Positions 19,257 to 40,097 of a DNA stretch of 64,000 bases are shown in pieces. This DNA comes from an uncultured virus (IMG/VR IMGVR_UViG_3300009152_000005). Lineage: Duplodnaviria; Heunggongvirae; Uroviricota; Caudoviricetes. A program made the translations under genes and the position numbers. The stretch is taken from the IMG/VR virus record IMGVR_UViG_3300009152_000005. One strand, given 5' to 3'. Every line of letters begins with the position of its first letter. Position 1 is the first letter of the stretch. The notes below the pieces were generated by a model, which saw only the letters and a program-made list of their open reading frames with translations, had not been told where the DNA came from and ran no database searches.

Positions 19257-19368
19257 TGGGCTTGAGCAGTTTTCGGGACATGTTGACGAGCCGCTCCAGT
19301 TGTTCCGGAGTCAGCTTGAAGTCTTCGACCTTCAGCGGTTTGTGCAATTTCTGGTCACTTTTTGCCAT
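19234..19368 (-). CDS. small hypothetical protein (44 aa, not in ORF track)
   Basis: MAKSDQKLHKPLKVEDFKLTPEQLERLVNMSRKLLKPNGKKSAD bridges the two flanking genes. Confidence 0.5.
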   Translation of the reverse strand: MAKSDQKLHKPLKVEDFKLTPEQLERLVNMSRKLLKPNGKKSAD

Positions 19369-22300
19369 ACGCTGAGGATACTCGGGCCTTCGGTGTAATG
19401 TCAACCTCGGGCTTGCTCGTCTGGAGCTGGCCCGCCTCGGTCATTTTGGTCCGGTCCAAGAAGCTCTTGTAGTCGGACTTCTCGGCACCCCGACCGCCTC
19501 GGGACCACCCCTTTTCATCCCACAGGTCCTTCTCCAAGAACCACATGAGAGCCTGAAGAGAGTCCGGCTTGATGCCTATCCGGTCCGCAGCCTTGCGGAA
19601 CGCTTTCTGGCCGAAAGCAAAGTCATGGTCCTGTACGCTCGACTCGTGGTCAGGCGTCAGGCGCCAAGGCTTTCCGGAGTCTTCACTACCAATACGGTGC
19701 AGGATGCGGGTCGCCCAGACGTCAATTGTGGCCTCGAACGTGGTGCCCGCAAGGTTGCCGGCGAAGTTCGGGGTCTTGGGGCCGGTCACCGTGTCCGCCC
19801 AGATGCCGGCGAGCACGTTGAGGACTTGACGTCCGTTTTGGCCGAAGTTCTTCCCGTTCTCCTTCAGCGGGACCAAACCGTGCTTTTTCACCCACCAGTT
19901 ACGCAACCGGGGGACCGGCGTGTCGGCAAGGTCAGCATCGTCGATGGACACCTTGCCCTTGCTGTCCGCAGCATACTCGGCGAGTAACTCCGGGTCCCGG
20001 GCCGCGATGCGGTCGATTCCTTCCTTGAACTTGGCTAGCTGCGCGTCGTAATCCCCGGCCTTAAACTTGTTGAAGGCTTCGACCGTGTACTTGAAGTTTT
20101 CGGCGACCGGCGTTTGGGCCGAGGTGGCGGCGAGAAGCTGCGTGAAAAACAGGGTGGCATCACCAAGCAGCGGTTGAAGCCGGTCCCGCACGTCGGAGTA
20201 CCAAGTCTCCGCGGCCTTGATTTCGGGGCGGTGCGACTCCTGTTTGTGGAGCTGCACAATTTTGTCCGCAAACGCCTCCGCGGCTGCTTCTTCACGGGCA
20301 TCCCCGCGCAGACCCTTGGCCGCCTCCTTGTAGAGCGGCGTCGACTCAAAGTCGTATGGCACCTTGATGGGCACGAGGTCTCCATCGGAGTCGAGCTTGA
20401 ACTGCCCGGTCGCGTCCTTGCGGAACTCCAGCGGGATGGCCTCAGGGAACTTCGACTTGACCATCTTGGACCGCTTCGACGCCTGTTGCGCGGGAGTCTC
20501 GTCGAGGTCATCAAAGCCGGCCTTGGCGCGGGCCTTGGGCGAAAAACTGGCGTCGCTCGGGATGACGCTGACGGTGTCGATTGCGTTGCCCCGGCGCCGC
20601 TGGATGTCGAAGGACGGACCGAAGACCTTCTCACGGAGTCGGACGACGTTTTCGCCGCCGACGATGGTGCCCTTGAGTTCGGTCACACCGGCAGCATTGA
20701 GCCGGGTGCCCAGCTCGCGGTACAGCGCCTCGCCGATGCCCTTTCGTTGATGTGCCTCGTCGACCGAGACGAGCCCGACCATAGCCGAGTCCGGCGAAGT
20801 CTGGTTCGCGCTGATGTACCCGATGGGGCGCTCCTCGCTGTCGAAAACGCGCAGCGTGAACATGCCCGTGCTCGGGATGCTCTCGTCCTTGAAGGCGTAG
20901 CCGAGTTCTTCCACCGCGCGGCCGGAGCCGGTCTTGGGGGAGAAACTCGCCTGTCCAGACATGACGGCCTCCTTGATGGCAGGCGTGATGTCGAGGGAGT
21001 GTACTGTCTCACCTCCCGAAATACGTTGCGCCGCCGCAACAGCATCTGCCTCAGTTTTGAAAGAGGTGGTATCAGCGTGGATATTTCCGTTCTTATCAAT
21101 GACAACCCACTTGTCACGAGATTTATCGAAATACGCTTTGACACCTTGCACGGGACTGACCTTGTCCGTACCCACTTTCTGCCCGCTCTTCTTCACCGCC
21201 GGCAGGCCGTTGACGACGTTCTGGAAGTCAACATTGTACAACTTTCTCAACCCTTCTCCGCCAACATTCAACCCGTCGCCTGTAAACTCCGCACTCTCGT
21301 ATTCTGGTTTGGCGCTCGCTGAAATCTTTGTCACCGCTTGCTCTGCGATTTCCTTTCCGAGAGTGTCTGCAAGCTGTTTCGCGTCCATGTCGCCACCGCG
21401 CGGCACGCCGATGCTGCCGCCCTTGTCGGTCACATGTGCCTGATACTTTCCGTCCTTCGTTCCATTCACGAGGATTCGGTCTACCTGCTTGCTAAGCTGG
21501 TATCTTCCTGACTGTTGTTCACCAGTCGTCCAACCCAGTTTGTCGGCACCCATTTCAACCGCTTTTCGCAGAGCCCACTTGAGTCCGATGTCGCGCCACT
21601 TGTCTTGAAACAACTTGGGCATCTTCTCGAACTGTTCCGGCTGCGGGGCCTGCACTTCTTCAAGGAACAGCATCTTTTTGCCATCCGAGGTGGTGCGCTC
21701 GTTGTACCGAAGCCGGGTTACGGGGTTCTTGACATCGTTGTAGGCCGCGTGGCCATCTTTCCAACCCGACTCGGGTTGCTTCCTTTCAAGAACGTACTTG
21801 AGCGCCGCGTCAGACGAAGGGTGCTTGGCCTTTGGAATCTGGAAGGTCTGTCCCGGGGCGTCGATGACCCAGTACCGCCCACCATCACGAGACGCACTCT
21901 CGGCCTCGTTCAGCTTCAGGTTCTCCTTGGTATAAACGGGCTTGGCCGGGGGCACCGTGAGCAGCACCTCGCGGTAGCTGCCTTCCTTGCCGCCGTGAAT
22001 TTGGTACGAATCGAACTTTGTTCCAATCTCGCGACGATGGGCAGCGTCCGCGTCACCCTCGCGGAGGTGGACAAATTTCTCGACGCCGTCCCGGAAAGTG
22101 CCGTTGTCAAACGTGACCAAGGTCGTTTGATTCGGGTTGTTCTTCGGGACTCCGTACACCTTTCCGCCCGATGCAAGGATTGCCTTCGCCCGCTCCACAC
22201 TTAGGTTTGGGTCGCCACCCAACGTCACGTCCTTGACAACAATCTGGTTGGCCTTGAGGTAGTCGAGCACCTCCGACTTGGTATAAACCTTGCCGTCTTC

Positions 22301-25300
22301 CAAGTCGCCGACGCCGACCAAGTCGTACTCGCCACGAGACGTGCCGAGTTTCGAGTTCTGGATGAGCGACTTCCACTGCGCGCCGGTGGCCTTGCCTTGC
22401 TGCGACTCTTCGACTGTCCGGTTGAGGCGAGAGTAGAACGCGGGGCGCTCTTCTGTGGGTGCCGGCTGTTCGCCTGCCTTGGGGGAAAAACTGGCCGCAT
22501 CCTTCGGCACCGTCGCTTTCTTCAGGGGCTTCGGGGAAATCCCCAGTGCCGTTGGTGCCGTCTTCTCGAACAACGCCACCACATCGCGACCGCTAGACTT
22601 GACGCGGAGGCCCGTGTAGCCGGCATCGCGCAGTTTCTGGTCGGCCTTCTCGCGGTTGACCTCGCCCAGCCAATTGAGGGGGTCGCTGTTGCGGGTCAGG
22701 TCATAAATGCCGCCGCCATGCGCCCGGACACCGTAGGACGGCCGAACCGTCAAGTTGGCGTCCGCACCGGTGCCGCTGCCCTCGACGAAGTAGTAGGTCT
22801 TTGGCAGGCCGCGCCGGTCCGTCGCCGTGGCTGCCGCGGTGCCGAACTTCTTCGGGTCGAGCACGTCCAGATTGCCGCCGTGGCCCGAGTAATGCAGCAG
22901 GCGCAGGTCCTTGTCGCCGACGGAGTCGGGCAACGGCGGCCTGCGGACGAGCTGCGGGGTGCCGGGCTCGGGCTTGATGGTGTCACGCTCTTCCTGACGG
23001 GCCGGCTCGGCTTTGCGGGCAGCCTTGCGCGCCTCATACTCCGCCATTGTGGGCATGAAGCTGGTAGCCTCAGCAACGAGCTTGGGCGGCAGCAGGGCGG
23101 CCTTTTGTTCCGCGTAGGGACGTTCGGTGACGGGGAGGTAGTCGGCGTCGCCCTTGACCGGCAGAGAGCCGTCCTTGCGCCGAAGGTGCTCCCCGTAGTT
23201 CACCCAACTGTTCTGGCCCAAGGTCTCCGCAGCGAGTGCTTGGACTGCATCCTCCGAAAACATCCGAGCGTGCGCGAGGTACGCATTGTACTCGCCCCGC
23301 GGACCGAACTCGTAGCCTTCCTTGGCGTGACCGAAAAAGTCATGCACTGCCCGGAAGATGTCGTTGACCGGAACATTTTTGCCGCCAACGGATACCCCCG
23401 AAGGAGTAAGCATCGGGTGGTCAACTACGGCACCCCCTTGACCATACCCTTGCTCGGTCGGGAAATACCACAGGTGCTTGTTGTCCGCGACGTCGACCCG
23501 CATGTCCGCGGAGTTGCGATACGGTTGCCCCGACTGCTCCCAAGGCTCCATCGTGTACCCGGCCGCCTTGATGGCTTCCCACTGCGCCTTGGTCTCCGCT
23601 GCGAGCGCCGAGTATGCCTTCCGCACCGCGGGGTCGTTCGGGGCGTCCTTTGCCGCTTGGTACGCGTCCGCCAACCGCTTCGCCCGGGATTCGTCGACAG
23701 TCGCGTAGCCACGGAATGCGGACTTCGTGATGCCGCTCCCGCGGATGTACTCGTCCGCGATTCCCCGGACCTTGTCTGAGCCCTTGGGCTGGCTCACGTC
23801 GGGCATGAACCCGGCGCGAATCAGGTCCGTGCTCGGCGCGCGGAATCCGGACTCCGGGCGGCCAGTCACTTTCTTGATGTTCTCAAGGTTCAGCTCCTCC
23901 GTCACCTTGAAGAGTCCGGCCTCCGTAACATCCACCCCCCGCGCAGCGAGCCGGTCCCGCAGCGGGTTGGTCTCCGCAATGGGGAGGTTGTTGCGCGTGT
24001 AAACGTCTTTGCCCGGTTCCGCGGTCCGGGAAGGCACCACCGGGCGCTGGTTTGCCTCGGCGAGCCTGCGTGCCTCGATGTTCGGCACCACCGGCTTGGT
24101 TTTGCTGCCCTTCGTGGTCTTGGGCGGGGCAAGGCCCATGACCAAGTTCACGTAGTCGGCGCGTTCCTTCGGAAGAGTGACTGGACGAAAAGTGGGGTTC
24201 TCGTCGGGGATGATGCCTTGGTAATCGGCTGGCCGTGCAACGCGGGAGCCGTCTCCACCGTAACCGTTCGCTTGGTTGCGCGTGTAGACCTCAAGGTCCG
24301 TCACGAACTGCCGAGACGCCTCCGGGGTAAACCCGCCATCGGGCCGCAGCGCGTAGGGGACCTCACCCTCCGCGCCTTTGCCGACGATGCGCTTGTTGAT
24401 GACGTCCGAGTTCGCCAGCACCTTGTCGAGCGACATCGCCAACAGGTTGACGTTCGACCCGCGGGTCTGCCACCGGTACGGGACCGCGACCTTGTCGACC
24501 AAGATGCGCACGTCTGCGGGCAGCTTTCCGAGTGCTTCTTGGATGTACGCTGCGTCCTGTTCCACTTTCCGGGCTCGGGCATCAGTGCCGCTGTTGCCGG
24601 TCGGCGTGACCGACTCATAGTCGATGGTCAGCGGTGCGACGTCTCCTTGGCTCCGCGATAGTGACCGGTTGACCTGCTCAAAAATTGCAACTTCTTTTTT
24701 GCCGTACTTCGGGTTCGACATCAACCCGATGGCCGCGTCTTCGATGCCGGCGCCCTTGGCCACCTTGTCGAGTTCTGCCTGCCGCGCCGGGTCGACGCGG
24801 ATGTTGCGGCGCGGCGCGATGGACTCCGGGGCTGCGGCCGGCGTCTCGATGACCGGAGCGGGGGCTTCCAATCCAATCTCCTTGATGCCACGCGACGCGA
24901 CCTCGGCGGCCTTGAAGCCGGGCTCGACACCGAGAGCACTCGCGGTAGGCGAAGTGCCGGGCTCGCGGATTTCCGGGGTCCGGACACCGAGTTTTTCAAG
25001 CCCCCGGCCGACAAGGTCTGCCACCGTTCGGAGAATCGTCGGCTTGACCGTGCCAAGACCGTCGGCATTGATGACCTTGCTGAGGACTTCCGCAGCGACC
25101 TCGTGCAGCACCCAGTCCGGGTTGCTCGCCGCGGCTGGGTTTTCGGCACCTTTGAGGGCTGCGGTGTACATTTCCCCGAACTGCCCAAGCTGCTCGGGGG
25201 TGTAGCTGTCGCGCAAAGTTTGCAGGAACTCCGCTCGGGCCTCGGGTGCGAGCAACTGGAAAACCGCGTGGCCGACCTCATGGCCAAGCGCGGTCGTGTC

Positions 25301-27031
25301 CCCGTTCAGGAAAATCTTGTCCCCGCTGACGTACCCGTTGGTGTTGTACTCCGACAGCGGCGTCCGCCCGGCCGCGGCTTCCGCTTCGCCAACCTGCTTG
25401 TCGTAGACGTCCTTCGGGAGCAGGTAGACCTCGATTCCCTTCTTGCGGACCACCTCACGGATATGGTTGAGCTGGTTCGCGTCCTTCTCATCCACCACCT
25501 TGATTTGCCGGTCGTGGGCGACATCGAGCGCCGGAATGGTCCCGAAGCCCTCGCTGGTTTGCTTGACGGCGTCGAACTGCTTGAAGCGTGCGCGGACTGC
25601 CTGAAGCGCAGCCTCGCGCGGTACGTCCTTGAGCCCCGCCGCCGTGCCGCCAAGAGCGCCAAAGACGGCACCGCCTGCAACGATACCGGACGCTTCGTCA
25701 GGAGTTTCTGCGCCAGCGAGGAACGGGACTGACGCTGTGGCACCGTGGAGCGCACCCTCGACCACCGGGAAAACGGTGCGTGCGGCCGAACCCGCAACGG
25801 TCGGGGAGGACAACACAGTGTCGAGAGCGTTGACCATCCGGCCGTTGCCAATCGCGGACGCGGCTTTGCCGGCCAGCTTGGTGCCCTTCTCGACGGCCTT
25901 GAGAGTGAGCGACGGACCAGCTCCTGCCAGAACGCTGGCTTCCTCCTTGATGAACTTGTTCACCACGCCGGTGCCTTTGCTCGTCATGGTCAGGCCGCGA
26001 CCCGCCATGGTGGCGGATGCGTCACCAAGCCGGGTGAGCTTCTGCAACAACGTCTGCGCTGCCTCCTTGCCGGATGCGACCGCAAGTGTCTTGCCGGCAG
26101 CTTCGACGGCAAAAAATCCTCGCGCCATCGGAACCAAGTTGACCGGGTCCAGCAGCAACTGCCAGCTCGCGATGTTTGCCGGATTGAGCGTGACGCCGTC
26201 CTTGGCCAACGATTCTGGGTCGAGCCCGGTCCACGCGGGGAGGGCCTCGCCCTTGGCGGCAGCGAGCAACGTGGACTTGATGGCCGCATCCTCTTGGAGG
26301 TGCGCCTCAAGCTCGTCGTCCGTCAGTTGCTTCGGGTCACCGACAAGTTTCTTCAGGACCTTCTGCGGGTCGAGCGGCCCGAGCGATTTCAGGGGGTTGA
26401 TGTCCGTCAGCGTTGGGTTGTTCGCGATATTGCGAACCCCCGTCCGGACAAGGTTGGCCATGCTTCCCGCTGCGGAAGTCGCCCCCGAGACGGCTTCACC
26501 TACGAACGTCTGAGCCTCTTTTTCGTCAGGCGTGAGGGGCTCGTCGGGGTTGCCCCAGTTCTTCTTGATGGCCAACCGCGCCAGCGAAAACGGAGGTAGC
26601 TTGTCGTAAGCGACCAAGGTCTTACCGACCCCGACGACGCTATCCCAAACGTGCCCCGCATCGGCTGCAACCCCCGCCGCCGTGGGCATCTTGAAGCCAG
26701 ACTGGAGCTGCTTCCGGTACGCGTCCAGATACCGCTTTCGCAGCACCGGGTCGCCTTGGATGAGTTCTTGGTGCTCTGCCCAAGTCGACGCGATGTCGCT
26801 ATCCTGAAGCTCCTCGGCTGAGACCGGTTTGACCGTGGAGACGTCGTAGCCAGCGTCGGCGGACGGCCCGACGGGAGTCACGGTCGAGGCGTCATACCCT
26901 TCATCCGCCGCCGGCCCGACGGGAGTCAATGTCGAGACGTCGTAACCTTCATCCGCCGCCGGCTGCGGGCGGGAAAGGATGGCCTTGATAGCGGTCGGGG
27001 ACCACGGAGCGTGCGGAGCTTGGGTTGCCAT
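19355..27031 (-). CDS. giant internal virion (ejection) polyvalent protein, about 2558 aa
   Basis: ATG at 27031 overlaps upstream stop; HEVGH metallopeptidase, VHDFFGH domain, ART-like LLHYS...LDP..FGT, GNAT QRKGIGEALY, C-terminal HhH-like TIDVW...LQALMW. Confidence 0.8.
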   Translation of the reverse strand: MATQAPHAPWSPTAIKAILSRPQPAADEGYDVSTLTPVGPAADEGYDASTVTPVGPSADAGYDVSTVKPVSAEELQDSDIASTWAEHQELIQGDPVLRKRYLDAYRKQLQSGFKMPTAAGVAADAGHVWDSVVGVGKTLVAYDKLPPFSLARLAIKKNWGNPDEPLTPDEKEAQTFVGEAVSGATSAAGSMANLVRTGVRNIANNPTLTDINPLKSLGPLDPQKVLKKLVGDPKQLTDDELEAHLQEDAAIKSTLLAAAKGEALPAWTGLDPESLAKDGVTLNPANIASWQLLLDPVNLVPMARGFFAVEAAGKTLAVASGKEAAQTLLQKLTRLGDASATMAGRGLTMTSKGTGVVNKFIKEEASVLAGAGPSLTLKAVEKGTKLAGKAASAIGNGRMVNALDTVLSSPTVAGSAARTVFPVVEGALHGATASVPFLAGAETPDEASGIVAGGAVFGALGGTAAGLKDVPREAALQAVRARFKQFDAVKQTSEGFGTIPALDVAHDRQIKVVDEKDANQLNHIREVVRKKGIEVYLLPKDVYDKQVGEAEAAAGRTPLSEYNTNGYVSGDKIFLNGDTTALGHEVGHAVFQLLAPEARAEFLQTLRDSYTPEQLGQFGEMYTAALKGAENPAAASNPDWVLHEVAAEVLSKVINADGLGTVKPTILRTVADLVGRGLEKLGVRTPEIREPGTSPTASALGVEPGFKAAEVASRGIKEIGLEAPAPVIETPAAAPESIAPRRNIRVDPARQAELDKVAKGAGIEDAAIGLMSNPKYGKKEVAIFEQVNRSLSRSQGDVAPLTIDYESVTPTGNSGTDARARKVEQDAAYIQEALGKLPADVRILVDKVAVPYRWQTRGSNVNLLAMSLDKVLANSDVINKRIVGKGAEGEVPYALRPDGGFTPEASRQFVTDLEVYTRNQANGYGGDGSRVARPADYQGIIPDENPTFRPVTLPKERADYVNLVMGLAPPKTTKGSKTKPVVPNIEARRLAEANQRPVVPSRTAEPGKDVYTRNNLPIAETNPLRDRLAARGVDVTEAGLFKVTEELNLENIKKVTGRPESGFRAPSTDLIRAGFMPDVSQPKGSDKVRGIADEYIRGSGITKSAFRGYATVDESRAKRLADAYQAAKDAPNDPAVRKAYSALAAETKAQWEAIKAAGYTMEPWEQSGQPYRNSADMRVDVADNKHLWYFPTEQGYGQGGAVVDHPMLTPSGVSVGGKNVPVNDIFRAVHDFFGHAKEGYEFGPRGEYNAYLAHARMFSEDAVQALAAETLGQNSWVNYGEHLRRKDGSLPVKGDADYLPVTERPYAEQKAALLPPKLVAEATSFMPTMAEYEARKAARKAEPARQEERDTIKPEPGTPQLVRRPPLPDSVGDKDLRLLHYSGHGGNLDVLDPKKFGTAAATATDRRGLPKTYYFVEGSGTGADANLTVRPSYGVRAHGGGIYDLTRNSDPLNWLGEVNREKADQKLRDAGYTGLRVKSSGRDVVALFEKTAPTALGISPKPLKKATVPKDAASFSPKAGEQPAPTEERPAFYSRLNRTVEESQQGKATGAQWKSLIQNSKLGTSRGEYDLVGVGDLEDGKVYTKSEVLDYLKANQIVVKDVTLGGDPNLSVERAKAILASGGKVYGVPKNNPNQTTLVTFDNGTFRDGVEKFVHLREGDADAAHRREIGTKFDSYQIHGGKEGSYREVLLTVPPAKPVYTKENLKLNEAESASRDGGRYWVIDAPGQTFQIPKAKHPSSDAALKYVLERKQPESGWKDGHAAYNDVKNPVTRLRYNERTTSDGKKMLFLEEVQAPQPEQFEKMPKLFQDKWRDIGLKWALRKAVEMGADKLGWTTGEQQSGRYQLSKQVDRILVNGTKDGKYQAHVTDKGGSIGVPRGGDMDAKQLADTLGKEIAEQAVTKISASAKPEYESAEFTGDGLNVGGEGLRKLYNVDFQNVVNGLPAVKKSGQKVGTDKVSPVQGVKAYFDKSRDKWVVIDKNGNIHADTTSFKTEADAVAAAQRISGGETVHSLDITPAIKEAVMSGQASFSPKTGSGRAVEELGYAFKDESIPSTGMFTLRVFDSEERPIGYISANQTSPDSAMVGLVSVDEAHQRKGIGEALYRELGTRLNAAGVTELKGTIVGGENVVRLREKVFGPSFDIQRRRGNAIDTVSVIPSDASFSPKARAKAGFDDLDETPAQQASKRSKMVKSKFPEAIPLEFRKDATGQFKLDSDGDLVPIKVPYDFESTPLYKEAAKGLRGDAREEAAAEAFADKIVQLHKQESHRPEIKAAETWYSDVRDRLQPLLGDATLFFTQLLAATSAQTPVAENFKYTVEAFNKFKAGDYDAQLAKFKEGIDRIAARDPELLAEYAADSKGKVSIDDADLADTPVPRLRNWWVKKHGLVPLKENGKNFGQNGRQVLNVLAGIWADTVTGPKTPNFAGNLAGTTFEATIDVWATRILHRIGSEDSGKPWRLTPDHESSVQDHDFAFGQKAFRKAADRIGIKPDSLQALMWFLEKDLWDEKGWSRGGRGAEKSDYKSFLDRTKMTEAGQLQTSKPEVDITPKARVSSAYGKK
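26826..26965 (-). repeat. 48-bp tandem repeat x3 (PAADEGYDVSTxTPVG)
   Basis: Three degenerate copies at the N-terminus of the giant protein. Confidence 0.85.
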
Positions 27032-28371
27032 CAGGGTACGTCGTTGACCGGAATAATCTTGTCTGGGTTCGCCGGATTTCTCCGACCAAATCCGCGGAAT
27101 GCGGGCCGACCGTTCAAGGCCGGGAAGTTCCACTCTTCAAGGCCGGCTGAGGCCTTCTTCGAGGGTGCCGCCGGCTTTGCGTCCGAGAGGTACTGAAGGT
27201 CGTCTGGAGTGAAGACATGCGCAAGCGGGACATCGTGATACCGAGCCAACAATGCCTGCCGTTCTGCAAGGTTCGCAAACGTCTTTTTCTGCCCGTCGAA
27301 AGCCTGCCGCCCTGCCGCGAGAATCTCTGCTCGTTGTTCCGGAGCCAATATGTTGCCGGCCTTAGCCTTTTCAAAGTACGTCGTGAATTGGTCCTTCCAT
27401 CCCGCCGTTTTTTTGATTGTGTCGTAGTCGTTGTCCGTGACCCTCGCACCCGGGTCCAAGATTTTCATGTACGAGAATATCATGGAGACGTCGTCCGAGG
27501 CACTCGGCTTCGCGTTGTCTCCTGCATTTTTCAGTTTGTTGAACGACGCTTGGACTGTCCGGAAGTTTTTGACTTCAGGGGAGTCATCGAACTCCTTGCG
27601 TATTCCGGACGCGACGTCCATGGGGTCCTTCTGCTTGCCCAACTGCATGAGTTGGAGCGCCTGTGCGTGCTCCCGCTTCCGCAGTTCTGCAACCTTCTGC
27701 GCAAGCTGCGGCAAGGTAAGTGTGCCAGCGGGGACGTCGAGTTCTCCCGCCGTGCTGAGGACACCCTCGTAGAGCGCCTTGGTGCCCGCGGGGTCGTTCG
27801 CTCTCCGGTGCAACTCATCCGAGAAAATGGTCCATTTGTCCTCGTCGGCCTTGAGTATGCCTTGAACCCGGCCCAGATTCGCTTTGGCCTGCGCCCTTTC
27901 CACGTCGTTGTTTGCCTTGGCAATCTCGCCTTGACCTTCGAGAAGAGACGCCTCGTTCTTGAGTTTGACGACCTTATTGGTGCGTTCTATCCCAGAGAGG
28001 CCGAACTCGTCCATCTGGTCCCGCAGGGAGGCGCGCTTCACCGCCGTTGCCTCGCCGAGGAGGCCGCTGTTCGCGCCAGCGGTATCGGCACCAAGCGTGT
28101 CCTCGGCAATCTTTCGCCGGGTGTTCGCCGGGCGTGCTTCAATGTTTGCCGCGGACTGGCTGATGGTGTCCTCGTTCGTGGCCACCGCTGCCCTCCGTTT
28201 GGACGGCTGGACGGTGATGTTGTCGATGATGTCGCTGGTGTCGAGGAATCCCGACTTGAACGCGGCATGCAATTTGCCGATGGCGTCCAGCGAGTCGGTC
28301 TGCTGCGGCGCCGGGACGGCCATGATGTCACCGCCCGAGATTCGACCGCCTTGGTCTGCGTAGGTAGGCAT
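27031..28371 (-). CDS. internal virion / DNA ejection protein
   Basis: Ala/Gln/Lys-rich helical protein with MKILDPG.RV...D motif, between pilot and giant protein. Confidence 0.6.
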   Translation of the reverse strand: MPTYADQGGRISGGDIMAVPAPQQTDSLDAIGKLHAAFKSGFLDTSDIIDNITVQPSKRRAAVATNEDTISQSAANIEARPANTRRKIAEDTLGADTAGANSGLLGEATAVKRASLRDQMDEFGLSGIERTNKVVKLKNEASLLEGQGEIAKANNDVERAQAKANLGRVQGILKADEDKWTIFSDELHRRANDPAGTKALYEGVLSTAGELDVPAGTLTLPQLAQKVAELRKREHAQALQLMQLGKQKDPMDVASGIRKEFDDSPEVKNFRTVQASFNKLKNAGDNAKPSASDDVSMIFSYMKILDPGARVTDNDYDTIKKTAGWKDQFTTYFEKAKAGNILAPEQRAEILAAGRQAFDGQKKTFANLAERQALLARYHDVPLAHVFTPDDLQYLSDAKPAAPSKKASAGLEEWNFPALNGRPAFRGFGRRNPANPDKIIPVNDVP

Positions 28372-35516: not shown

Positions 35517-36323
35517 TCAAGGCTCTATAATAACGTAAGCTACAATTCTGGTGTCATTTGAGTTGCTTGAATTGATTATAAATGATGTACCGGGCACCCT
35601 TGTTCCCACTGTAAGAGACCCGTGCGAGGATGGTCCGCCGGAGTCAGTTTGCCCGGTCAGCAAGATGTTTGAGGCAGCCGTGACATAGGTATCAACCACG
35701 GTCACGGTGCCTGCGACGAGAGTAGCGCGGCCATGGCGAATCCGAGTAAATAGAGAACCATTTGCGCCAAGCATCCACTGACCCGAAGCGTTTATACTAC
35801 CATAGGTCGTGGACGTGACTGCATTGGCGGAGGTGGCCGTTGCAAACCGGAGGGTGGTTGCAGCTTTGTAACCACCAGACGCCGCACCAACAACAAGGGT
35901 ATTCGCGGTAGACGTTGGAGACATCCGGAAGAAGCCAACACCGACACCATTCGCGTAGTCCGCCGCGACTATGTTCAGGTCCTTGTTCGTGTTGGCAGTT
36001 CGGGCGCGGGAAGTTGATGCGCCGTCGTCCGCGCCGAAGCTGATGAGATTGACCCAGAAATCCATTGGCGCGACGGTTGCGGCACCTCCGAATCCGATTT
36101 TGGAAGTCGCTGGGGCGATATATAGCGGTCCAGTGGTATCGACTTCGGATGCGACGACCAGTGCCCCAACGAGTTTATCCCTCAGGGTCTGGTCAGAGTC
36201 ACCCGGGGTCGGTGTCAACGCCGTGATTTCCGCGCTCGGAGTCAATGGAGCCAACACTCGCCGAATGCGGTCTTCCCATCGTTGCCGAAAACTATGCCAG
36301 ATTGGAACTCGTTCGGTAGCCAT
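35517..36323 (-). CDS. short fibre/decoration protein
   Basis: N-terminus paralogous to 41845-42888; C-terminus paralogous to 36705-40097. Confidence 0.7.
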   Translation of the reverse strand: MATERVPIWHSFRQRWEDRIRRVLAPLTPSAEITALTPTPGDSDQTLRDKLVGALVVASEVDTTGPLYIAPATSKIGFGGAATVAPMDFWVNLISFGADDGASTSRARTANTNKDLNIVAADYANGVGVGFFRMSPTSTANTLVVGAASGGYKAATTLRFATATSANAVTSTTYGSINASGQWMLGANGSLFTRIRHGRATLVAGTVTVVDTYVTAASNILLTGQTDSGGPSSHGSLTVGTRVPGTSFIINSSNSNDTRIVAYVIIEP

Positions 36324-36704: not shown

Positions 36705-39700
36705 TTAAGGTTCAATCATTACCCAAGCGACTTTGGCGGTGTCTGTCGCATTTGAAGAGGTGATAGTGAAGGAAGTCCCGGAGACGCGGGCGCTGACGCG
36801 CAGAAATCCCGGTGTAGTTCCGCCTTCTTGGGCTGTAAGCATGATGCGAGTGGTAGCGTACACGTAGCCATCAGACACAGTAACGGTGCCCGCCGCAAGC
36901 TGGGCAAAGCCATGGCGGATTCGGTTGATTTTGATGCCGTTGCTGTCTACTTTGAGCGCGGAGATGGAAAGTCCGTTGACGGCGTCGTCTACCTGCACGT
37001 CGCCGCTCTTATCAGGAAGCACTTGCGTACGAGGGCCCCCGACCGAGCTGGGCGGTTGTAACGAAATGTTGTTTGTCGCAGGGTTTTGGCCAGTTACATA
37101 AAACTGGATTGATGTCGCAAACCCTGAAACACTTGGTGCAGCCCAAGTAGGCACGCCACCTGAGACTGTCAACACTTGACCCGCTGAACCGATAGCGCGT
37201 TTTGCTAACACGTTGCCCACGCTGGCGTATAAAATATCTCCGAGTGTATATGTTCCAAGCCCGGTGCCTCCTTGCGTTGTAGCCACCGTCCCCGATAGGA
37301 CGCTGGCAGGAATTGTCGCGGAAGCGGTGACTGCTGAAGTGCCGTTCCCGAAGAGATACCCGGAGAGCGTGTTTGCCCCGGTGCCACCGGTGCTGACCGT
37401 CATGGTCCCGGTGATGTTGGTCGCCGGGATGCTGGTCGAAGCGGTGAAGGCTCCAGTGCCGTTGCCGGTGACGTAGCCGGTAAGCGTGGTTGCTCCAGTA
37501 CCTCCTTGGCTGACCGGCAACGTGGTGATAGTGGCTTGCTTGCCGTTCAACTGCGTCTGAATCGCGCTGGTGACGCCGCTGAGATAGCCAAGCTCCGTCG
37601 ACGTGACCGAGGAGTAGGTCAGGATGCCTCCGGCGCTGAAAATCGCAGCCTTTGACTGACTTGACCCAACATACACCGGAGCAACCCAGTTACCTGCGAC
37701 ATCCCAAAGGTACACGCCGTTTGCGACGTTCCATGAAGGTGACGAGTTGTTCGACGCATACCAACTAACACCAGCACCCGGACTAAGCGCAAGCAACTGG
37801 TTGTTTGCATTTGCTGCTGCCGAGGCGTGTACCCAAGCGGACCCGTTGTAGTATACATTAGCCCCGAGGAACAAAATGTTGCTTATCGGAGTCAGGCTAC
37901 CGTTGGTGCCATCAGACCCGACTGCGCGCACAGGGCTGATGCTGGACGTAGCGACGATGGCGGCTGCGCTGACCGTTCCTGTAAACGTAGGAGAAGCTGT
38001 CCCAGCAGGTCCACCAGTGCCGCTCGACGTACCTGCGAGCAGCGCCGTTACACCGGTCCCAAGACCAGACAAGTTTGTCGTAGGTATGCTCGTCGATGCA
38101 GTAAACGCCCCGGTGCCGCTGCCGATGACGTAGCCAGTGAGGACAGTTGCTCCCGTTCCACCTTGGCTAACGGCGACGGTGTTCAACGCAGCGGATAGTA
38201 TCTTACCGGACGCATCTGTGAGCGTGGTGACGCCAGAACCGGCCTTGAGCAAACCGTTCACGGTGAGCCCTGTGCTGTTCAGGGACATCGCATTTGCTCC
38301 GGCGATGTAGAACGCTTGAGCTGCCCATGTCGCGCTGGCTCCATGCATGAGGGTCGTCCCAAAAGATGAAAGCGTGGTATCTGCTCCTTCACCTATCGCG
38401 CCGTTGTACGAGATGCGCCCGGCGACATCGAGCAGGTATGCCGGGTTGTTTTTGTTGATGCCGACCCGGTGGTTCACCGCATCGACATAGAAGGTAGTTC
38501 CGTCGATGTTAGTGGTTCCGGTGACTGAGCCTCCGGTCAGCGGGAGGGCGTAGCTGGAGTAATTGTGGTCCCCAAGCAATGTCCGCCACGGGCTGTAAGA
38601 CCCAACGCCTCCGACGTTGCTCGGGTTGCCGCTGCGGGTGTAGAGGGTGCCAGCGGTGTAGTCTCCGTAGATTTGAGTAATTGTGTCCGCTCCCCCTTGG
38701 ATTACCAACAACTGACCCCATTGAAGAGAGCTGGGTCGGTTCGCTTCGGTGTTTTGGATGCGATAGACCCCGGAGGTCGTCAGCGTGTTGAGGTCGACAC
38801 CGGGAATACCGCCGACCTTCATGGCGTCGGTGAGCCCGTATCCGGCAAGCGTCGTCGGGTTGGTGCCTGCGATGACCCGGCCCTTCGCGTCAGTGGTCAC
38901 CGAACGGTACGTGCTCGCAGTGCCTACCGAGGCTAGAGTCGTCGCAACAGCTCCGGCAGACGTTGTGATGTCGCCTGTCAACGCAGGCATCCGAGCGGCA
39001 AGGAGCGTGCCTGCGTTCAAGTTGCCGGCGTCTTGGTAGAAGCTGCCGAGCTGCCCATTCAGATACTGGACGTTGAGATTCGAGACGAGCGTTGTCGAGG
39101 CAACTACCAGCGGAGCCGTACCGGTAGCTACCGACGAATAGAACTGGTCCGTTGTTCCAATCCCACGCTCCACCGATAGAGTTTTCGTGGTGCCTGTACC
39201 GACAACAGCGCCGACAACAATCGGAGCTGTGAAGGCCGGACAATCAGGGCCGTAAGCGTAGAGCGAGATAGGCACGACGCTGGTGACATCGGACACGTAG
39301 ATGTCCAGATACCCTGCGCCATCGCCGGAGTTACCAGTGACTCGCACCTGCGAGACGATGTAACCAACGTACATCCCGCCCTTGACGATGCTTATCTGGC
39401 CGGTTTGGCCCCAGCCGTTGGAGTTCCACACCAACTCCAGAGCGTCCTTCTTGTTGTTGTACGAGGCGTAAATGCGAAGGACGCCTCCGCCTGTAACATT
39501 AGTAGTGAACACCCTGTACCAACCCACGGTGGTCGGAGTGAAGGTAGTGTATTTCTCAACGAACAGAGAGCCGTTGACCTGACTAGAGAAGGTGCCAGTA
39601 GTCCCTGTGATACCGCTGGATGCTGTGATGGCTCCCAGCACGTCCAAAGCGACAGTCGGGGTCTTGCCGATACCGACCCGCCCATAGCTACTGAGCCTCA

Positions 39701-40097
39701 TCAACATTCCGCTGTACGTACCAAACTCAAGACCGTAGGGGTCAAAGCTCGGACCAAACGCAATGTAACCCACGTCGGTCGAGTCAATCTTTCTACCCAA
39801 TTTCCAAGTGGCACTATACCAATCGCTGCCGCTGTAGCTCCGGATGAGGGTTGTCTGCAGACTATCGTTGTTGCCGGTGGTCGCTGAATGCACCAACCCC
39901 GGAAGAGTGTTGCCTGCGGTTCCTCCTAGAGACCCGAGAGGTTGGGATATGCCGCTTGAGACGGTCAAGCCAGCCAACGTACCGACCCCGGTGATGCCGG
40001 AATAAGCGCCCGTAAGCCCTGCGGGGTCAACGGCATCTCCCGAAGGCAGCGTTTGAAGCTGCCCGGCTATGCTAACAAGAGGAATTCGATTAGCCAT
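36705..40097 (-). CDS. long tail/head fibre protein with pyocin-knob-like domain
   Basis: Gly/Thr-rich V.QGGTGATT repeats, SVTTDAKGRV repeat, knob DLNTLTTSGVY...WGQLLV...TQIY. Confidence 0.85.
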   Translation of the reverse strand: MANRIPLVSIAGQLQTLPSGDAVDPAGLTGAYSGITGVGTLAGLTVSSGISQPLGSLGGTAGNTLPGLVHSATTGNNDSLQTTLIRSYSGSDWYSATWKLGRKIDSTDVGYIAFGPSFDPYGLEFGTYSGMLMRLSSYGRVGIGKTPTVALDVLGAITASSGITGTTGTFSSQVNGSLFVEKYTTFTPTTVGWYRVFTTNVTGGGVLRIYASYNNKKDALELVWNSNGWGQTGQISIVKGGMYVGYIVSQVRVTGNSGDGAGYLDIYVSDVTSVVPISLYAYGPDCPAFTAPIVVGAVVGTGTTKTLSVERGIGTTDQFYSSVATGTAPLVVASTTLVSNLNVQYLNGQLGSFYQDAGNLNAGTLLAARMPALTGDITTSAGAVATTLASVGTASTYRSVTTDAKGRVIAGTNPTTLAGYGLTDAMKVGGIPGVDLNTLTTSGVYRIQNTEANRPSSLQWGQLLVIQGGADTITQIYGDYTAGTLYTRSGNPSNVGGVGSYSPWRTLLGDHNYSSYALPLTGGSVTGTTNIDGTTFYVDAVNHRVGINKNNPAYLLDVAGRISYNGAIGEGADTTLSSFGTTLMHGASATWAAQAFYIAGANAMSLNSTGLTVNGLLKAGSGVTTLTDASGKILSAALNTVAVSQGGTGATVLTGYVIGSGTGAFTASTSIPTTNLSGLGTGVTALLAGTSSGTGGPAGTASPTFTGTVSAAAIVATSSISPVRAVGSDGTNGSLTPISNILFLGANVYYNGSAWVHASAAANANNQLLALSPGAGVSWYASNNSSPSWNVANGVYLWDVAGNWVAPVYVGSSQSKAAIFSAGGILTYSSVTSTELGYLSGVTSAIQTQLNGKQATITTLPVSQGGTGATTLTGYVTGNGTGAFTASTSIPATNITGTMTVSTGGTGANTLSGYLFGNGTSAVTASATIPASVLSGTVATTQGGTGLGTYTLGDILYASVGNVLAKRAIGSAGQVLTVSGGVPTWAAPSVSGFATSIQFYVTGQNPATNNISLQPPSSVGGPRTQVLPDKSGDVQVDDAVNGLSISALKVDSNGIKINRIRHGFAQLAAGTVTVSDGYVYATTRIMLTAQEGGTTPGFLRVSARVSGTSFTITSSNATDTAKVAWVMIEP

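Follow-up and report, generated by a model that had tools for sequence, protein, structure and literature searches.

A giant phage gene and its motif-bounded cassettes

The window analysed here is a stretch of 64,000 nucleotides from an uncultured virus of the Caudoviricetes (IMG/VR record IMGVR_UViG_3300009152_000005), and our subject is one giant gene on its minus strand. The gene is a single open reading frame (ORF) of 2592 amino acids (aa), translated from a GTG start at 27133, from which all residues are numbered. Its product, a phage large polyvalent protein (P0001), consists of a conserved scaffold followed by five cargo blocks (D1-D5), and a short motif with the core F-x-P separates the scaffold and the blocks from one another. 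A preliminary description of this DNA had drawn attention to five copies of [SG]F[SM]P in the protein and had offered two readings: that effectors are released at them by site-specific, possibly self-, cleavage, or that they form a standard junction through which effector cassettes are swapped. The gene and its junctions are as follows.

19355..27133, minus strand: giant ORF, 2592 aa; phage large polyvalent protein, last gene of the minus-strand structural block
23801..23812, minus strand: junction 1, GFMP (aa 1108-1111); end of the conserved scaffold, G1108 and F1109 invariant
23051..23062, minus strand: junction 2, SFMP (aa 1358-1361); just past model helix 291-298
22481..22492, minus strand: junction 3, SFSP (aa 1548-1551); from the motif scan and homolog comparison
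20936..20947, minus strand: junction 4, SFSP (aa 2063-2066); past model helix 992-999, model residues 1002-1034 having a predicted local distance difference test score (pLDDT) below 50
20537..20548, minus strand: junction 5, SFSP (aa 2196-2199); insertion point of ART-PolyVal cassettes in the homologs P0003 and P0004

All five copies sit at the coordinates first reported (aa 1108, 1358, 1548, 2063 and 2196), the blocks have the lengths then given (250, 190, 515, 133 and 393-396 aa), and the HExxH motif said to lie upstream of the copies is found at aa 618. The composition of the protein predicts 0.047 copies of [SG]F[SM]P, against 5 observed, and none of 20,000 shuffles of the protein had 5 copies (the maximum, 3, was reached once). 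ASFSPK is the sole 6-mer occurring three times in the protein. The blocks delimited by the motif are these.

23063..23800, minus strand: cargo D1 (aa 1112-1357), phrog_3170; pLDDT 84-98 in the AlphaFold2 (AF2) model
22493..23050, minus strand: cargo D2 (aa 1362-1547), a block common to P0004, P0007, P0009, P0010, P0014, P0017 and P0018
20948..22480, minus strand: cargo D3 (aa 1552-2062), ending ...VMSGQA before the motif; GNAT-like core in its C-terminal part, AF2 pLDDT 65-90
20549..20935, minus strand: cargo D4 (aa 2067-2195), GNAT acetyltransferase; Pfam PF00583 at aa 2087-2153, 25.7 bits against a cut-off of 20.7
19358..20536, minus strand: cargo D5 (aa 2200-2592), DUF7178; Pfam PF23802, 38.9 bits against a cut-off of 27, and phrog_3842

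The motif coincides with the points at which relatives of the protein diverge. A word-indexed search gave 82 giant homologs, and BLAST of P0001 against the 81 others gave 135 high-scoring segment pairs (HSPs). There are 228 HSP ends between aa 1000 and 2560, of which 110 are no more than 10 aa away from a motif copy where 17.5 were expected, although the HSPs are not independent; this comparison of domain gain and loss with the motif was one of the checks proposed in the preliminary description. Close homologs differ by whole cassettes inserted, deleted or allele-replaced between motifs, as the standard-junction reading had anticipated. For example, P0004 is 95% identical to P0001 in the N-terminal part, 45% in D1, 95% in D2 and 91% in both D4 and D5, and D3 is absent. 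The corresponding values for P0003 are 97% (N-terminal part), 88% (D1), 97% (D2), 60% (D3), 96% (D4) and 90% (D5). A methyltransferase cassette lies between two SFMP copies in P0004 and P0005, and the ART-PolyVal cassettes of P0003 and P0004 are flanked by 'IPSDASF(Q/A)P' and 'RISF(S/M)PKARAK'. That is, the sequence before the motif moves with the upstream domain and the sequence after it moves with the downstream domain. In the 10 of 12 homologs with any Pfam match, the matched domains sit between motif copies, and none crosses a junction-type copy; one AFAP lies inside the tail of the P0004 ART-PolyVal match. Judged by these comparisons, exchange of cassettes at the motif is well supported.

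Predicted structures could be set against the motif for part of the protein: the ends of D1, D3 and the scaffold agree with it, and those of D2 and D4 are poorly modelled. The AF2 model of aa 1060-2259 (alignment of 27 rows) has a mean pLDDT of 62.7, with D1 (aa 1120-1359) at 84-98 and D3 (aa 1566-2060) at 65-90. In this model, the SFMP at aa 1358 comes after the last D1 helix, where pLDDT drops from 88 to 55 (model residues 301-304 are below 50), and the SFSP at aa 2063 lies four residues past the last D3 helix, within a stretch of pLDDT below 50. The GFMP at aa 1108 also falls within such a stretch. In the model of aa 480-1130 (mean pLDDT 81), G1108 and F1109 close the folded scaffold and the next eight residues are below 50. 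The models thus place the motif at the C-terminal edge of a fold, where a linker starts.

The earlier claim of one recognisable domain per block holds for D4 and D5, which Pfam identifies, and for D1 (phrog_3170), but not for D2 and D3, which stand as homolog-shared blocks. Members of the D1 family are also found on their own, as Atlas clusters of 188-320 aa and as single genes of mycobacteriophages, and an Atlas search for the function of D1 returned unnamed clusters only. By tblastn against phage records, D1 was also found in a 4012-aa protein of Microcystis phage Mel-JY33, encoded downstream of tail tubular and lysozyme genes, and in a protein of Planktothrix phage Pag-Yong1 that is annotated as 'large polyvalent protein'. 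With VIA-align, D3 matches TacT3 (Z 9.8, 128 residues aligned), AtaT (Z 9.0) and the anti-CRISPR acetyltransferase AcrVA5 (Z 7.6). Among the best 50 matches listed, all are either annotated as acetyltransferases or, where they carry no such description, are what we take to be GNAT-fold structures. Since D3 has a GNAT-like core besides the GNAT domain of D4, the protein may carry two acetyltransferase cargos. Homolog HSP ends also cluster at aa 1816-1850 inside D3, where there is no motif; this clustering suggests a variable insert, and D3 may hold more than one sub-domain.

The F-x-P motif across the family

The motif first described, [S/G]F[M/S]P, is real but was described too narrowly, since the conserved core is F-x-P and is family-wide. 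Among the first 81 homologs there are 84 copies of FMP against 9.1 expected, and several proteins have 6-7. A logo of 111 instances shows F, M/S and P strongly fixed, with a weak preference for A at -2, Q/S/R/G at -1 and A/K at +3. Two other accounts of the motif were rejected: the M of FMP as an internal start codon, ruled out by the FSP/FLP/FQP/FKP variants, which have no ATG, and a SecM-like arrest peptide ('IRAG' ahead of the first GFMP), IRAG being present at the first junction only.

An exhaustive search with the scaffold (aa 480-1120) returned 209 proteins at E <= 0.001. For 142 of the best 150 of these 209 matches, the best stretch ends at query residues 630-639, that is, at the first junction. 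G-F-x-P closes the scaffold in 138 of 161 relatives, and the first junction in these 161 proteins reads GFMP in 64, GFLP in 57, GFQP in 8 and GFSP, GFKP and GFAP in 3 each. In the 120 proteins with enough sequence on both sides of the first junction, the 145,898 aa downstream of that junction contain 382 copies of the protein's own variant, and the 138,674 aa upstream contain two. The downstream copies have a median spacing of 166 aa. The linker joining the two domains of the scaffold itself contains no F-x-P.

The middle residue is mostly uniform within a protein and varies by lineage (FMP, FLP, FQP, FKP, FSP, FMA). Grouped by the first junction, the downstream frequencies are given below; composition-expected rates of the variants are 0.04-0.26 per 1000 aa.

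First junction GFMP (n=63): downstream FMP 2.52 and FLP 0.26 per 1000 aa
First junction GFLP (n=49): downstream FLP 3.12 and FMP 0.23 per 1000 aa
First junction GFQP (n=6): downstream FQP 2.29 per 1000 aa
First junction GFKP (n=3): downstream FKP 2.31 per 1000 aa
First junction GFSP (n=1): downstream FSP 5.4 per 1000 aa
First junction GFMA (P0012, n=1): downstream FMA 4.0 per 1000 aa

For M versus L, the first junction and the downstream copies agree in 87 of 90 scorable proteins. On a FastTree phylogeny of the scaffold (motif columns excluded), the residue changes between M and L at least seven times. Of five independent pairs, an average of 4.6 show a downstream shift in the same direction and none a shift in the opposite direction, a result that the few pairs available leave at p ~0.06 in a sign test. 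The same holds next to individual cassettes. D1 is followed by FLP in 16 of 23 GFLP proteins (FMP in 0) and by FMP in 15 of 30 GFMP proteins (FLP in 1, neither in 8), and D5 is preceded by FLP in 16 of 30 GFLP proteins (FMP in 2) and by FMP in 9 of 28 GFMP proteins (FLP in 0, neither in 10). Parallel change at many sites implies a common cause, which could be one reader with a shifting preference or homogenisation by the copying of junction DNA. The uniform middle residue may reflect a reader, copying, or both. The flanking residues are a different matter: F and P persist where unrelated folds end, in lineages that are about 30% identical, and on this comparative evidence the F..P core is under protein-level selection.

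The motif does not extend to every polyvalent protein. The cyanophage proteins of Mel-JY33 and Pag-Yong1 have no junction-type copies (a single FSP in Mel-JY33 is their sole F[MSL]P), and the motif is thus characteristic of a subfamily only. More distant polyvalent proteins (P0072, P0075, P0056, P0050, P0042, P0022, P0081 and others) show another recurrent tail, approximately GxF(x5-6)DIR[FY][SM], and D[IVL]x[FY][SM] occurs 33 times against 12.9 expected. This DIR-type tail often trails ART-PolyVal ('...FxPxQIKSAxxNxGxF...RISFSP'). Hybrid tails are found in P0024 and P0080 ('DIRFMP') and in P0033 ('DIRYMP'). To judge from these sequences, the DIR-type tail may be an ancestral or sister junction signal.

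A candidate reader of the motif

If the motif is read by a protease, the scaffold itself offers a candidate.

24854..25576, minus strand: zincin metallopeptidase domain (~aa 520-760); AF2 pLDDT mostly above 85, with structural matches
25268..25282, minus strand: HEVGH (HExxH) at aa 618-622; H618, E619 and H622 invariant
25088..25102, minus strand: E678..A681-E682 in the second helix, candidate third zinc ligand; E678 invariant, A681/E682 at least 90% conserved
23813..24745, minus strand: scaffold domain 2 (aa 797-1107), ending ...STDLIRA before the first motif; AF2 model, partly WYL-like

H618, E619, H622 and E678 are invariant among 15 aligned sequences at about 30% identity. The zincin domain is matched in 147 of 160 scaffold relatives (131 with HExxH, 16 with HDxxH), and the E..AE pattern is present in 132 of these 147. 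The remaining 13 relatives miss the N-terminal region or most of it and are therefore uninformative as a natural control. With VIA-align, aa 520-760 match the catalytic domain of anthrax lethal factor (LF; Z 7.0, 159 residues aligned, rmsd 4.2) and PPEP-1 (Z 6.1, 159 of 195 residues aligned, nearly the whole chain), both Z values being middling. The domain has no match to a Pfam peptidase family at E up to 1, and Foldseek searches with both AF2 models returned nothing at E <= 0.001.

In 16 scaffold relatives (including P0107, P0111, P0116, P0133, P0135 and P0142), HDxGH replaces HExxH; from the sequence, this may represent a naturally occurring change of the catalytic base from Glu to Asp. Fifteen of these relatives are GFLP-type and one is GFSP-type. 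Part of scaffold domain 2 (aa 797-1107) matches the WYL domains of BrxR, PafBC and CapW (VIA-align Z 9.3-10.2, 87-94 residues aligned). The WYL domain of such regulators senses a ligand. The WYL-like part of the predicted scaffold could be a sensor that gates the peptidase, or merely share a barrel fold.

Taking these observations together, we propose the following scheme. The gene would encode a virion-delivered large polyvalent protein, with a conserved scaffold of ~1100 aa carrying an LF/PPEP-like zincin and then a variable cargo train. Every cassette and the scaffold would end in F-x-P (here GFMP, SFMP and three times SFSP), followed by a flexible linker, and comparison indicates that cassettes are gained, lost and replaced as motif-bounded units. 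A single reader, most likely the protein's own zincin, would recognise the motif and cut at or beside it, possibly just after Pro if the analogy with PPEP-1 (VNP↓PVP) holds, which is speculation. Such cutting would release a scaffold of ~118 kDa and cargos of ~27, 21, 57, 14 and 43 kDa; it could take place in the capsid or once the protein has been ejected into the host.

Release of effectors by site-specific, possibly self-, cleavage, as first suggested in the preliminary description, is plausible on the conservation and modelling evidence. The best explanation of that evidence is that the in-cis zincin reads (cuts at) the motif, to which we give a probability of roughly one half. We hold slightly more tentatively the wider proposal that a large subfamily consists of self-processing polyproteins, in which the zincin would read an F-x-P code, the middle letter would co-evolve by lineage and new cassettes would plug in carrying the code. 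When the zincin domain and the first-junction peptide were modelled as a complex, the result was graded as weak support: it scored 0.56 (runs of 0.56, 0.45 and 0.82), and the best of three controls scored 0.00. The runs agree in at least 54% of contacts, with a partner pLDDT of at least 40. Of 157 solved complexes, 116 reach the mark applied, as do 2 of 215 mismatched pairs; scores at or below 0.60 account for 18 of the 157 solved complexes and for both mismatches that passed.

Several points weigh against cleavage by the protein's own zincin. All arguments for cleavage are comparative or predicted. Both chains of the predicted complex come from one polypeptide, so their contact may be intramolecular packing. 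With D2 and D4 poorly modelled, structure informs three of the five boundaries and not those at aa 1548 or 2196. The 16 HDxxH relatives keep dense F-L-P motifs where the downstream sequence suffices. The FMP-rich proteins P0024, P0077, P0079 and P0080 have no detectable P0001-type zincin, each having another HExxH. The scaffold columns that track the M/L type (aa 720, 1020, 1080, 1060, 959 and others) are scattered and not focused on the zincin, which fits phylogeny. P0001 has two copies with FMP and three with FSP, which means that its lineage shows no strict reading of the middle position. The rare Ser codon AGT (7% of the gene's Ser codons) recurs at all three of its ASFSPK sites, which points to copying of junction DNA, and uniformity within a protein could stem from such recombination and not from a reader. 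Finally, N4 virion RNA polymerase (vRNAP), which also bears the metallopeptidase (MPTase), is reported to be packaged unprocessed (PMC5512222).

Among the alternatives, the one that survives best, though we consider it unlikely, involves no cleavage at all: F-x-P would be a domain-end cap and linker start that doubles as a recombination joint, its uniformity coming from copied junction DNA. Inserted cassettes indeed have a motif copy at either end, as with a duplicated joint, F lies where confident folding ends in the model, and P0001 both mixes M and S and has the same rare codons at its three ASFSPK sites. CCC is found at all five junctions (32% of the gene's Pro codons), and TTT, the minor Phe codon, at two of the three ASFSPK sites (20537-20548, 20936-20947, 22481-22492). 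The codon sharing at ASFSPK could reflect a common DNA origin or a translational pause at domain ends. Yet twelve bases are too few for homologous exchange, and retention of F and P across unrelated folds and diverged lineages argues for selection on the three-residue core at the protein level. In L004, a 54%-identical fragment, the three FMP sites differ at synonymous positions. A joint of this kind would also need parallel change at many sites, since whether a given cassette family carries FLP or FMP depends on the protein that hosts it, and the motif is missing from the one linker that joins the scaffold's two domains. Related DNA in viral, metagenome and genome contigs comprised identical copies (L002, L003; G001/L001) and L004 only, and the question of recombination versus selection rests on the five sites of the window and three in L004. 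When the junction DNA pattern was searched for exactly, just two matches came up, both unrelated and due to chance.

Less likely again, the motif could be a cleavage site for a separate protease, either a phage maturation protease or a host protease acting after ejection. Concerted variants require one reader without specifying which, and both the scatter of the M/L-associated columns and the FMP-rich proteins that lack the P0001-type zincin suit an enzyme encoded elsewhere. There is precedent in the T4 and phiKZ-like head proteins, which are cut by prohead proteases at short motifs. Substrates of this kind (T4 internal proteins (IPs)/Alt, phiKZ/SPN3US) are packaged cargo trimmed at short conserved motifs, the T4/phiKZ sites being (L/I)xE and (S/A/G)xE and the prohead protease a separate protein. 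F-x-P is, however, unlike these sites, and no prohead-protease family was recognised among the window ORFs scanned (30 and 25 against PHROGs, 27 against Pfam), most of which matched nothing. Moreover, the zincin active site is conserved wherever the N-terminus is present. The weakest alternative is a non-proteolytic docking signal, read by the capsid interior, the portal, the WYL-like scaffold domain or a chaperone, that orders or threads cargo in packaging or ejection; the anatomy of a short linear motif with one copy per cassette, the concerted variants and a complex prediction that implies possible peptide-zincin contact and not cutting would all suit it, but no candidate reader has any evidence and the conserved catalytic residues of the zincin would need another substrate, making it improbable.

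Known systems and significance

The protein has the size and multidomain build of the polyvalent class: 2592 aa, a scaffold and five blocks that recur independently in homologs, and a phage context. Precomputed Pfam annotation of the homologs includes ART-PolyVal, LPD38, RadC and other polyvalent hallmarks, and ART-PolyVal was confirmed in motif-bounded slots of P0003, P0004, P0009, P0014, P0024 and P0033; a Pfam scan of P0001 itself gave no ART or LPD match. Polyvalent proteins as described by Iyer, Burroughs, Anand, de Souza and Aravind (2017; PMC5512222) are likewise giant multidomain phage proteins, with a zincin MPTase as a hub domain. These authors proposed autoprocessing and domain release of polyvalent proteins by the MPTase, cited P1 DdrB as processed, and linked the MPTase to lethal factor by HHpred, with which the LF fold match of the zincin in the window agrees. 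Term look-ups in that paper turned up no named cleavage site and no occurrence of the word 'linker'. In the literature searched, no junction or cleavage motif is described for polyvalent proteins, although the external files of PMC5512222, outside its scope together with bioRxiv supplements, may show one. What is new here relative to Iyer et al. is an F-x-P junction that delimits every cassette of one large subfamily, with concerted lineage variants and breakpoints on the motif.

The protein also combines the two elements of a self-processing polyprotein, a predicted in-cis protease with conserved active-site residues and a short conserved site at every junction. MARTX toxins have an inositol-phosphate-activated cysteine protease domain, which cuts after Leu in linkers, as well as RTX repeats and type I secretion. 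The window protein has none of these defining parts and is not a member; instead, it has a zincin candidate, an F-x-P motif, a phage particle as the probable vehicle and a bacterium as the probable target. As huge delivered polypeptides with a strain-variable effector train that is released after entry, MARTX toxins are nevertheless the closest working analogue (PMC6315884, PMC5218395, PMC6731672). With the M34-type zincins (lethal factor, PPEP-1/2), the window protein has in common HExxH and a downstream Glu on a zincin fold. PPEPs read six residues, P3-P3' (PMC12828418), and cut beside Pro, in VNP↓PVP and PLPPVP (PMC10413326). The window protein differs from PPEPs in having no sequence-level family match, one Pro in the site and not Pro-Pro, and an enzyme within its own putative substrate.

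The position of the gene bears on how its product might be delivered. The minus strand of the window carries tail-fibre, Ig-like and tailspike genes, and the plus strand encodes a helicase, an exonuclease, a family-A DNA polymerase and an endonuclease. Mass spectrometry of phi24B virions detected a 2811-aa polyvalent protein, which was called an ejection protein (preprint 10.64898/2026.04.10.717836). Because the gene ends the structural block and phi24B gp47 offers a precedent, the giant protein probably enters the host with the DNA.

The virus has a near-identical counterpart in a record of 62.4 kb. An identical database protein (P0002, 2558 aa) begins 34 aa later, at an ATG at 27031. This ATG shares one base with the stop of the upstream 446-aa ORF (27031-28371) and is the likelier start because of that overlap. 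The one-base overlap of ATG and stop (region 27029-27033) suggests translational coupling. Near the N-terminus, translation and repeated 6-mers reveal three tandem ~16-aa units (ADEGYDVSTLTPVGP-like; aa 58-105, window 26819-26962, minus strand). Elsewhere, K1-lyase_C (PF24146), which we take to be the self-cleaving chaperone end of tailspikes, terminates two minus-strand ORFs, 35517-36323 and 36705-40097 (E 7e-19 and 5e-22), and the phage probably has two depolymerase-type spikes.

For the family, the motif is a natural joint for the exchange of cargo modules, and it accounts for the mosaic evolution of these genes. It also gives a rule for splitting thousands of giant phage ORFs into candidate effector units, many of the inter-motif blocks having no known family. 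Self-processing of polyvalent proteins has been hypothesised since 2017 without a testable site, and F-x-P provides both a target for mutagenesis and a set of predicted fragment sizes. Should the motif be read by the in-cis zincin, the lineage variants (M, L, Q, K, S; P to A) would form a series for studying the co-evolution of a protease and its site. If true, self-processing polyvalent proteins would be the bacterial-virus counterpart of MARTX toxins and RNA-virus polyproteins.

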